Below are positions 55,601 through 58,600 of a stretch of 64,000 nt of DNA, one piece after another (position 1 is the stretch's first letter; each line of letters begins with the position of its first letter). Both the position numbers and the translations under genes were made by a program. Source of the DNA: an uncultured bacterium (GTDB taxonomy: Bacteria > Oederibacteriota > JAAXVQ01 > JAUVAV01); NCBI GenBank assembly GCA_965371665.1, contig CBDUZI010000001.1, forward strand, positions 9,411 through 73,410, given 5' to 3'. The notes under the pieces are model-generated. The model ran no database searches. It saw nothing but the letters and a program-made list of their open reading frames with translations, and was not told the DNA's origin.

Positions 55601-58600
55601 AGGACAGGCTGGTTAATCGCCCGCGGAGTACCGGCTTCTATTTTGTGGGTTACATGGCCTTCATCATCAATACGTATAAGGGGTTCCCGCGAATCAACCC
55701 AGAGCTGGTAATCGTGGTTAAAGGCTGCCTCGGTTCCATACGTTATGTCAGCTTCGTAGGCTAAGGCGCGGTCAAAGCTTTTAACCATCTTTTCCCCATC
55801 CCAGATGCTTACCACTGGCTGAGAGCTTTCCAAGTCATACTCACCTACGATGGCCACCGTGATGCCTAGAGGGGCTAGCAGGACTGCCATTTCCTCCCCT
55901 TGTTTAAGGGCTAAATCGATGTTCGGTGTGGACAGTTTAGTGCCTTGATTCAAGAGAGAGACCGCAAAAAGGCCCATGGCCGCGGCCTCGGTCTTGCCCT
56001 GGCCTGTTGCCAGTTGGAGGGCATATCCCACTGTGTCGATAGCCGGAATATCCGAGCGGAAGAGCAGGCGCACGAAATAAAAAACTTTCCTCCAGCCGCG
56101 GCGTTGCCTCATCTCAGAAAGAGCCAGGGCTGCCATGATTTGATTGCGATGCAGGGTAAAGCCTTCCAGCCGGATGCGGCTTTCAGGGTCGGATTCGGAC
56201 GCGGCCTGATCTCGTTTTTGTTTTTCAATGGTCACAGCGGCGATGGTCAGGGCTCGAATTCTTAGCGTTTCCAATGCCTGCTTGGCTTCTGCCAGATCCA
56301 TCCTTTGCAACTGCCTGCGGAGCCGATCGGTTTCCGCAAGCAGTTGAGGGAGGGACATTTTTTCAAATTGTACCCGGAGTTTGTTAACCTGGTTCGCCTG
56401 ATCACGAAGTTTGATCGTGGTTCTGCGTGAGGCAAAGGCCTGGTAGCGGGGCATGGTAAAATGATAGATGAACCAACCTCCGGCAATTAAACCGCTGGCG
56501 ATAAAAAACAGCCATGAGCCCAGGCCGACAAGAACCAAGCCGGTGACCAACCCTGCTGCCAATTGACCAAACTGCACGATCAGATAAAGTGAACTTACGA
56601 CACCGGCTGCCACTACCGGCATGACCAGATACGGCAAAAATCTTCCGGCCAGAGTCCTGAACTGTTTCTGGACTGTCACTAACTCGAGCCGCATCCGCTG
56701 TTCAGCCAGGAGGGCGCGGACGTGATCGATCACTGCGATAACGGCCCCCACTAGAATGAGAATGCAAATGCCCGTGCCTAAGCCTAAGCCAATCGCTTGC
56801 GGCAGCAAGATAATGACCGTTACGATGATGCCTCCCACCACCGGAAGTCTTTTGAAAATTTTGGTAAAATAAGCCTGAGTCTGTTCCCCTTCAGGTATAC
56901 CGGGAATATAATCACCGCTAATGGCAAGCTGCTCGGCCAGGGTCTCGGGCTTGAAAAGCATTCGAGTTCCTAAAACCGAAAAAAGCAGGATGATGGCAGC
57001 CACCACGAACACATAAGTCAAGGTCATAGGCGCGAGGACCACGCCAAACAAGGCGGGGGCTAACATGATAAGCATGGTGATCACAGCGCTCGACCCTATG
57101 GCCGCTACCACGCCAAAATAATCCATTTGTAGGGGCAGAATGCGTTCGCGCGGCTTCTTTTGCTCTGTTTGTTTAACATCCCGCGCCGACCGGATGGAAA
57201 TTTTATAGTATATCGTGTTCAGGGCAATCGCGAGAGCAACGGTGGCCAATCCTCCGATAAGGATAGGCAGACCGGAGAGGGAAAGTACACTGCCAGAAAC
57301 CAAGATTCCAGCGGTGTGAAGCAAATTCGGCAATACCATCACTCCGAACAGAACATAATTGGTCCGGCCGCCCAAGCCGCGCTTCTCTAACTGTGTCATG
57401 AACCATAATAAGACGACAGAGCCCAAGGTCAGACTAATAATCGCGACCAGTTGACTGCCCAAGGTTACAAAAATGTCAGGCATGGCTTGCACGAGCAGTA
57501 CAGCATATATCACTGCAATCCCAACCGAAATATATTTAATGTAGCGCTGGACCTGTTTTCGTCCGATTTCAGTTTTTTGAAGTTTTTTCAGAGGTGGAAA
57601 AACCAGGGTAATGCCCATTATAATCAAGCTAGCTAAGAAAAAGGGAGCCAGTCCCAGGCCGAAGATGGAAAGATTATCCAACGCCCCGCCTAGCATAAAG
57701 TTCATCCCACTCAGCGCCGCCGCATCGTTCAACCTTAGAAAGGTAAATAAAACCGGACTTACGCCTGGAATCGGCACACAGCAACCGATGAAATAAAGGC
57801 CGATAACACCTATTGTAATCAGCCCTCGTCTAACCAACACCCAGGGAATGCCTTGACTAAAGCGACGGAAGTAGATAACCGCATCTTCCTTGGCAGCCTG
57901 CATCCACTCCCGCCAGTTTAGTCTTTGTTCCACGGCAGGTTCCGCCGGCTCCCCGGCGGCGGTTTCCTGAACTACTCTCTGGGACGGTACGCTAGGTGCC
58001 TCTCCGTATATCCGGGTTATTTCCTCAATAGCTTTGGCCAGTTCATCGGGGCGCGAATCTCGAGTACGGAAATCCACAACCAGACGGTTGGCGTCTCTCA
58101 CAATTTTTAACAAAGTCTGGTTCAAAGCGGCTCGATCTACGGTTTCACCTCTGGCCAGATGCTCGTAGAATCTGCCTAACTGGGTAAGTTCGCTGGCCAA
58201 GTACTTCCCGGTTCGCTGCAAATAGGCCAGATAGGCTGAGCGTTCTTCCTCAGAAAAATACGCCATGCCTTCAGCAGTGTGGCCATATAGATAGGTTAGT
58301 TCCTGATCCAACAGCCATGCCTTTTCAACTAGAACGGCTTTTGCCGATCTGGCAATTTGAAGTCTTCCATGTGATTTTAAGTCGCGCAGGCGGGTATTTC
58401 GCGCTTCCCGAAAATCCTGCATGGTCATCCAAACATCCGTGCCTTCTAATTCTATATTGAGTTTCGCTATCGCCATTGCCAGTTCGGACGGCCTCATGCC
58501 CCGGCGCCGAAAATCCACGTTTTGGAAATCCCCTCTGCGGCGGCCGGCATCGAGCGTGATGTGAATCAAGGTTTTATTTAAGGCTGCCCGATCCAGGGCC

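Follow-up and report, generated by a model that had tools for sequence, protein, structure and literature searches.

A SecY channel and a near-complete SecA in one chain of a giant bacterial envelope protein

We analyzed a 64,000-nucleotide stretch of DNA (hereafter the window) from an uncultured bacterium of the GTDB lineage Bacteria; Oederibacteriota; JAAXVQ01; JAUVAV01 (GenBank assembly GCA_965371665.1, contig CBDUZI010000001.1, positions 9,411 to 73,410 of the forward strand). On its minus strand the window carries a giant open reading frame (ORF) for a multi-pass envelope protein, a single chain of which contains a SecY domain with ten transmembrane (TM) helices, two extra TM helices, a near-complete SecA, a domain of about 170 amino acids (aa) and three further TM helices, all within aa ~1975–3840. 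The ORF list gives the giant ORF as 25663..63852 (minus strand, 12,729 codons). Its reading frame is still open at the right window edge (63853–64000, minus strand) and the gene continues upstream, which places the true N-terminus outside the window and makes the protein at least 12,778 residues long. Because of this open edge, all residue numbers given here are relative to the window. The ORF and the parts of the SecY–SecA module are as follows.

25663..64000, minus strand: giant ORF of at least 12,778 codons, stop codon at 25663–25665
56695..57852, minus strand: SecY domain (aa 2001–2386) with TM1–TM10, putative plug helix and C4/C5 loops
56482..56676, minus strand: two extra TM helices (aa 2393–2457), after an amphipathic stretch rich in Lys and Arg
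53143..56427, minus strand: SecA-like motor (aa 2476–3570) with N-terminal helices, nucleotide-binding domain 1 (NBD1), PPXD, nucleotide-binding domain 2 (NBD2), scaffold helix and two-helix finger
55990..56007, minus strand: Walker A motif TGQGKT (aa 2616–2621)
55654..55671, minus strand: Walker B-like motif IDDEGH (aa 2728–2733), which keeps the Asp and Glu of the SecA DEVD motif
54229..54351, minus strand: NBD2 motif V-like TNPRGT (aa 3168–3173) and motif VI GRVARQG (aa 3202–3208)
53200..53361, minus strand: two-helix-finger-like element (aa 3498–3551)

Pfam scans along the whole ORF find, in this order, GH5 (aa 170–407), SecY (2062–2373), SecA_DEAD (2475–2715) and P-loop_SecA (3022–3241), and almost nothing in the remaining ~9,000 residues. 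A second SecY copy was looked for within the giant protein and not found. The SecY domain is not a stand-alone gene of the spc operon; it lies inside a 38-kb ORF that is flanked by sugar-transport and envelope genes. We regard it as virtually certain that the giant protein carries a genuine fused SecY–SecA module.

The Pfam family SecY (PF00344) matches the domain at full length (profile positions 1–304 of 306) with E = 7.9e-41 and a score of 140.8 bits, well over the cut-off of 32.2, which assigns it to the SecY/Sec61α superfamily; all fused relatives match this family too. The NCBIfam SecY model TIGR00967 is covered over positions 3–409 of 414, and phmmer against the PDB sequences aligns the domain end to end with E. 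coli SecY (5mg3_Y, E = 1.8e-35). An AlphaFold2 (AF2) model of aa 1990–2475, computed with an alignment of 29 canonical SecYs, has ten TM helices in the SecY order followed by two further helices, with a predicted local distance difference test (pLDDT) score of 70–93 in the SecY core. When this model is compared with full SecY chains by Foldseek, the template modelling score (TM-score) is 0.78 for T. thermophilus 5aww_Y (424 columns) and 0.81 for E. coli 5gae_g, and Sec61α chains rank after SecY. With the helix boundaries of the AF2 model, Lys and Arg account for 28 of the 155 loop residues on the inside (cytoplasmic) face versus 1 of the 95 on the outside (periplasmic) face. Together this shows a SecY fold with N-in/C-in topology in the giant protein. 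An earlier note, made from the letters and translations of this DNA, had described a SecY-like channel at residues ~1995–2390 with ten TM helices in the SecY order plus two extra ones, and had proposed a PF00344 search and a superposition of a folded model on solved SecY as checks. Residue 1995 does map to window position 57870, and the profile matches, the phmmer alignment, the AF2 model with its Foldseek scores and the loop charges all agree with that description. The motifs PIPGV, GGAL..SIFGLGLAPF, GRKQVQRY and EKRGLGG that it relied on are present, except that the C5-loop motif was misread: it was given with PGIRPGEQT, whereas the translation reads SGDYIPGIPEGEQT (PGIPEGEQT), with Pro at the equivalent of E. 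coli R357.

The two extra helices are conserved in all fused relatives, in both of the sub-groups described below. The C-terminus of SecY is cytoplasmic and the two helices lead the chain back to the cytoplasm, so that SecA homology begins ~18 residues past a membrane anchor. Canonical SecA depends on its N-terminal helix for tethering to lipid. In the giant protein the SecA N-terminus is joined to TM12 instead of an amphipathic helix, and a TM helix probably takes the place of the tether.

The near-complete SecA that covalently follows SecY went unmentioned in the earlier note and strengthens its idea that the protein has its own translocon. In the giant protein Pfam matches SecA_DEAD (E = 8e-16) and P-loop_SecA, and the relatives also match SecA_PP_bind. 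In a phmmer search of the PDB, aa 2462–3800 align collinearly with T. maritima SecA in five pieces, and a profile built from 19 canonical SecAs matches aa 2476–3570 over profile positions 17–833 of 886 (E = 7e-38). The unmatched ends of the profile are the N-terminal amphipathic helix (positions 1–16) and the Zn-finger tail (positions 834–886); the SecA part has no such tail and carries large insertions. The tip of the two-helix finger reads NLRMFLKNRDPL, compared with LRGYAQRDPL in canonical SecA, which replaces the tip Tyr by Phe. A profile of the isolated two-helix finger has its sole match in the 12,729 aa at 3498–3551, with 11.5 bits versus a maximum of 5.9 in 3,000 shuffles, and it also matches the equivalent site of a relative (P0066, introduced below). 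An AF2 model of aa 2480–3679 (pLDDT 70.5, predicted TM-score (pTM) 0.34) contains a 51-residue helix and, at the position of the finger, a helix-loop-helix (model residues 999–1069). The top 34 Foldseek matches of this model are all SecA or SecA2, with alignments across whole chains, and their low global TM-scores are due to the unreliable inter-domain geometry of the model.

We ran an exhaustive phmmer search with aa 1990–3189 against 1.84 billion representative proteins. Among the best 150 of 4,105 matches, only two span the whole query: P0066 (3,157 aa, 50% identity), which comes from a metagenome-assembled genome of candidate division FCPU426, and P0067 (2,037 aa, 41%). A third protein, P0070, has both domains with a longer spacer, and P0068, P0069 and P0071 are fragments from one contig. 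The other matches among these 150 are ordinary SecYs of ~440 aa with at most 33% identity. Pfam finds SecY and SecA_DEAD in each of the three long proteins P0066, P0067 and P0070. A scan of 185,579 species-representative genomes returned three loci, two of them in FCPU426 and one in Firestonebacteria (identical to P0067). A metagenome scan added L005, in which an ORF of at least 2,816 aa has SecY and SecA in one frame, and otherwise found canonical SecA or SecY genes. In a further contig, L030, the module is present and broken by frameshifts. Across the protein, genome and metagenome scans the SecY–2TM–SecA fusion is thus carried by about six independent contigs from at least two candidate phyla: P0066/L002 and L003 (FCPU426), L004, which is P0067 (Firestonebacteria), L005, L030 and P0070/P0219. 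No relatives of the fused module were found in viral contigs. The family falls into two sub-groups, between which the SecY domains are only ~20% identical. Word-indexed searches with the SecY part and with the 2TM and SecA part returned canonical SecY or SecA only; the fused family is reached only by exhaustive search because the word index misses it. We conclude that the architecture is real; it is rare in current data and occurs in at least two candidate phyla.

These relatives also bear on the question of whether the fusion is an artefact, produced either by a chimeric assembly or by a sequencing error that joined separate secY and secA genes. Most relatives do lie on short or frameshifted contigs, as such an artefact would have it. 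Against it, an uninterrupted 38-kb ORF cannot arise by chance, the order SecY–2TM–SecA recurs, in a single frame, in no fewer than five independent assemblies that stem from different samples, and the sequence is far from any canonical SecY or SecA. We give an artefact a negligible probability.

One further locus (L031:717–5576) has a 1,619-aa SecY–SecA gene with start and stop inside the contig; the stop falls in the middle of NBD2, and the next gene is unrelated and runs in the opposite direction. We considered this gene (L031/P0219) as a stand-alone SecY–SecA protein and did not use it as evidence, since truncation and an assembly junction are inseparable here; possible readings are a truly short form, a pseudogene and an assembly junction.

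Compared with the housekeeping SecYEG–SecA system, the module has the same 10-TM SecY fold with C4/C5 loops, an alignable plug segment and a mostly hydrophobic pore ring, the same SecA parts (NBD1, PPXD, NBD2, scaffold helix and two-helix finger) and the same orientation in the membrane. It differs in that its SecY and SecA are covalently linked through two extra TM helices inside a protein of >12,700 aa, no SecE or SecG is detected in the giant, there is no ribosomal-protein operon around it, its scores lie below the equivalog level, R357 and many other invariant residues are lost, and its SecA has long insertions and no Zn-finger tail. Few machines in biology are as well studied and as conserved as SecY and SecA; throughout the searchable literature they are separate proteins, with fusions only as engineered constructs.

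Several other systems resemble the module in part. The accessory SecA2/SecY2 systems of Gram-positive bacteria likewise have a second, divergent SecY/SecA pair for a very large and unusual surface protein, but in the giant the components are fused to each other and to the presumed cargo, and the lineages are FCPU426 and Firestonebacteria. The SecY2 models score the giant at 95.3 against a cut-off of 353 (NF009082) and at 88.7 against 249.6 (TIGR02920), both below the score of the canonical SecY model. The module thus falls within the SecY and SecA superfamilies but outside both the housekeeping equivalogs and SecY2/SecA2. In the engineered SecY-(GGSG)4-SecA fusion (‘SecYAEG’, Sugano et al. 2017, PMC5562318), which translocates proOmpA in vitro and has also been studied by atomic force microscopy (PMC11711467), the SecY C-terminus leads into the SecA N-terminus in a fixed 1:1 unit, as in the module. 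There a Gly/Ser linker of 16 residues joins the two parts, with SecE and SecG provided separately; in the natural module they are joined by an amphipathic stretch and two TM helices, all inside a giant protein. Autotransporters (type V) are a conceptual analogue only, with cargo and its own translocator in one polypeptide; they use an outer-membrane β-barrel without an ATPase, whereas the module combines an α-helical Sec channel of the inner membrane with an ATP-dependent motor, and the two are not homologous.

Similar in overall make-up are giant proteins in which divergent SecA domains come after ‘transmembrane anchor domains’, for which the question of export was left open (West-Roberts et al. 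2023, bioRxiv 10.1101/2023.11.21.568195). The protein in the window has the features of such SecA giants: >10,000 aa, many TM helices, a divergent SecA_DEAD preceded by TM helices, and a carbohydrate-active domain with sugar-import neighbours. With the ‘Archaeovorin’ and ‘Dockerin’ giants of Omnitrophota it shares the multi-TM layout, carbohydrate-active domains, adjoining sugar-import genes and a TM-preceded divergent SecA_DEAD/PPXD. The TM region was not identified as SecY in those giants, and their SecA was said to be without scaffold and wing domains (West-Roberts et al. 2023), whereas here SecY is demonstrable and a scaffold/two-helix-finger motif is detectable; the fused relatives moreover come from FCPU426 and Firestonebacteria and not from Omnitrophota. 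In the text of West-Roberts et al. 2023, SecY appears only as part of the separate canonical SecYEG and never inside the giants, a 2026 Omnitrophota preprint lists a PF07517 architecture cluster and no SecY, and ‘SecYA’ in a full-text literature search denotes engineered constructs only. Within the searchable literature, which for giant proteins names SecA and ‘transmembrane anchor’ regions only, the natural SecY–SecA fusion appears undescribed, and the suspicion in the earlier note that the SecY part of giants is under-appreciated holds.

The homology between the window and P0066 does not end with SecA; it runs on through the ~170-aa domain, a TM hairpin and a third TM helix and then decays. 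The conserved unit is aa ~1975–3840, and the sequence beyond it is variable between relatives. The features past the motor, and the two stretches of the giant protein that resemble known enzymes, are given below.

52633..53115, minus strand: conserved ~170-aa domain after SecA (aa ~3580–3740), 39% identical to P0066 of FCPU426
52339..52599, minus strand: conserved TM hairpin (aa 3752–3786), Lys/Arg-rich loop and signal-anchor-like TM helix (aa 3818–3838, N-in/C-out)
51229..52338, minus strand: first extracytoplasmic segment after the module (aa 3839–4208), predicted from charge
62632..63345, minus strand: domain of the GH5 (cellulase) family at aa 170–407, upstream of the module; Pfam score 26.3 bits (E = 6e-6), cut-off 23.5
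32437..32697, minus strand: weak second GH5-like stretch at aa ~10,386–10,472, downstream of the module; its Pfam match (E = 0.007) falls short of the cut-off

The ~170-aa domain shares the motifs RFRQIGGD, IASFG and INDPGR with the FCPU426 relative and has no sequence match in the PDB or Pfam. The segment that follows the third TM helix (aa 3839–4208, ~370 aa) starts with a linker rich in Pro, Ala, Thr and Gln, is acidic and poor in Lys and Arg, and ends at a TM helix (aa 4209–4227) followed by KKRR. The TM helix at 3818–3838 and this segment have the N-in/C-out pattern of a signal anchor followed by a predicted exported domain. The second GH5-like stretch is an internal repeat of aa 146–244 of the N-terminal GH5 region (BLAST E = 1.6e-9). 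GH5-type domains are normally extracytoplasmic.

The best explanation of these features, in which we have slightly better than even confidence, is that the module would serve as a private SecA-driven translocon for the extracytoplasmic parts of the giant protein itself. Its two components differ in strength: the module is probably an active translocase, and its predicted action mainly in cis, on its own chain, has a little less than an even chance. The housekeeping SecYEG/YidC would insert the N-terminal part and the embedded SecY domain. Once these have folded, the tethered SecA could capture the downstream chain that is still emerging, with the signal-anchor-like TM helix (aa 3818–3838) as its first substrate. 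SecA would then push the large extracytoplasmic loops through the cis SecY channel at the expense of ATP, and TM segments would leave by the lateral gate. A protein that is slow to translate might in this way have a private translocon and not block the essential one. At bacterial translation rates a chain of >12,700 residues holds a translocon for many minutes, and a private channel would spare the essential one for that time. The translocation competence of the engineered SecY–SecA fusion counts in favor of this explanation. Threading in cis is sterically possible given PDB 5eul (listed as ‘SecA, Insertion Peptide Chimera’), in which a substrate inserted in the SecA finger enters SecY in cis. 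The loss of arginines that dock the ribosome and SecA is in keeping with a channel on which its own SecA would sit permanently.

Several results weigh against a private translocon of this kind. Across the fused family, only 15 of the 37 positions that are near-invariant in canonical SecY (at least 90% conserved in 97 sequences) are kept, 3 are swapped for another conserved residue and 19 are variable, which means that channel activity could be altered or lost. The losses include Q93, E176, N185, P276, T404 and the cytoplasmic-loop arginines R255, R256 and R357. At the six E. coli pore-ring positions the residues are L/F/T/L/I/I, so that five of six are hydrophobic and one is polar or variable (position 187, which varies across the family). 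SecE is required for the stability of canonical SecY. A profile search against PDB chains and Pfam detected nothing like SecE or SecG, either in the extra helices or in the TM helices further downstream. The match of the two-helix finger is weak at 11.5 bits, and with a pTM of 0.34 the SecA model permits no statement on the docking of SecY and SecA. The 2,000 or more residues that precede the module, GH5 included, must use another translocon. Finally, action in cis and action in trans fit the present data alike.

The divergence of the channel is also what would be expected if the SecY were degenerate and only an anchor or docking platform, with the SecA-like ATPase doing unfolding, remodelling or membrane tethering. 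Identity of the fused SecYs to canonical SecY is 19–30%, compared with 33–51% among canonical SecYs of different phyla; the TIGR00967 score of 147.8 bits lies below the equivalog cut-off of 253.6 that marks a housekeeping SecY; more than half of the near-invariant positions are lost, R357 among them; pore position 187 varies; no SecE or SecG is detected in the chain; and earlier work assumed ‘TM anchors next to SecA domains’. What speaks against a mere platform is the pattern of what remains. Across the two sub-groups, which share only ~20% identity, the ten helices, the plug segment, the five hydrophobic pore-ring positions and the C4/C5 hairpin loops are kept; the plug segment can be aligned and forms a helix in the AF2 model, and the Gly hinge is retained. 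Conservation falls on the same positions as in canonical SecY (per-column Spearman 0.36, maximum of 2,000 permutations 0.16). A plain anchor would need neither a 390-residue channel fold nor a SecA with PPXD clamp and two-helix finger. We read this as a SecY fold and core that are probably still under selection, with constraints on docking and gating that appear relaxed or changed, which is the expectation if SecA is permanently attached and the ribosome no longer docks. A degenerate platform seems improbable to us.

The donor lineage of the SecY domain was also sought; the nearest canonical SecYs are of mixed phyla and uninformative. SecE/SecG mimicry by the two extra helices or by the three TM helices after SecA was considered and set aside, as the best match is unrelated (E = 0.78) and the idea is purely topological.

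An active module could also work in trans, as an accessory translocase that exports other substrates, such as copies or processed fragments of the giant or neighbouring surface proteins, while the giant protein localises or scaffolds secretion. Such a role would be analogous to the SecA2/SecY2 systems that serve a few large adhesins, and it draws on the same evidence for an intact channel and motor as the private translocon. It is also in line with the N-terminal 2,000 or more residues, which cannot use the module co-translationally, and with the envelope and surface genes that recur beside fused genes. These are FlgD_ig/Por_Secre_tail and UPF0164 outer-membrane-type genes near the fused gene in the window (8126–9601, 16787–18565) and in L005 (514–1368, 1960–2955), and two TolC-like OEP genes after the fused gene of L030 (L030:15198–18276); they may be conserved envelope partners. 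For the giants in general, secretion of ‘accessory proteins’ and proteolytic processing have been considered (West-Roberts et al. 2023). On the other side, the module always lies within a much longer chain, and the decay of homology after the signal-anchor-like TM helix has the look of a module plus its own cargo. The Pfam scans found no peptidase domain in the giant protein, and there are no Asp/Gtf-type accessory Sec genes nearby (no Asp1-3 or glycosyltransferase genes among the neighbours of the giant gene). A tethered SecA would, moreover, meet the 9,000 downstream nascent residues first. Overall we think an accessory role in trans rather unlikely.

The earlier note had offered, as an alternative to self-insertion or extrusion, a channel delivered into the membrane of a target or prey cell. 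The only points in its favor are the GH5 domains and the predatory or cell-wall-degrading setting that has been proposed for giants in general. By the positive-inside charges and by the covalent, ATP-dependent SecA on the cytoplasmic side, the module belongs in the producer’s own cytoplasmic (inner) membrane, and it sits mid-chain with TM clusters on both sides. This alternative is disfavoured to the point of being extremely improbable.

The natural SecY–2TM–SecA fusion would offer a concrete, testable mechanism for exporting the extracytoplasmic parts of bacterial proteins of 10,000 to >100,000 residues. It would show that ‘invariant’ features of SecY (R357, the polar N185, E176 and Q93) are dispensable once SecA is tethered and, perhaps, SecE and SecG are absent. 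The fusion could also be a ready-made 1:1 translocase for structural and single-molecule work, and it suggests a second look at the TM regions beside SecA domains in all giant proteins. A bolder extension, which we find doubtful, is that a cargo-embedded single-chain SecY–SecA is a distinct third Sec class and a general answer to the export of giant multi-pass proteins. The ‘transmembrane anchor’ regions before SecA in Omnitrophota and other giants would then be cryptic, fast-evolving SecYs, without SecE/SecG or ribosome docking, that thread their own downstream chain.

The giant protein looks assembled from repeated modules. Internal repeats comprise a TM-cluster module with 59% identity, a triple ~135-aa repeat after GH5 and two other duplicated segments (aa 1–101 versus 1035–1133; 456–594/598–735/750–883; 1643–1799/1799–1946; 3921–4222 versus 5981–6284), with positions in the window that include ~63550–63852 and 60454–60750. 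About 12 hydrophobic helices are densely clustered at window ~37270–38475 (aa ~8460–8860), with no Pfam match even at E ≤ 1; this cluster could form a further membrane domain of a transporter- or enzyme-like kind.

Directly downstream of the giant gene come two ABC sugar permeases (window 23496–25338), and a solute/sugar-binding protein is also in the window (261–1571). Another binding protein and a GH94 cellobiose/cellodextrin phosphorylase are encoded just past the left window edge (L035/L036). Taken as a whole, the locus resembles one for β-glucan utilisation and, because of its GH5 domains and its context of sugar-import and envelope genes, the giant looks like a membrane-anchored, surface-exposed polysaccharide-degrading protein. 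The G+C content is 0.38 at window ~14000–16000 and ~22000–24000, compared with ~0.50 for the giant gene, and the low-G+C part includes a 1.2-kb stretch without a long ORF (22316–23496). Two other neighbours, a 1,738-aa protein with DUF6259/NPCBM_assoc (window 1568–6784) and a 1,204-aa protein with a weak match to the S-layer SlpA β-barrel (window 9612–13226), may be further surface components of the locus.

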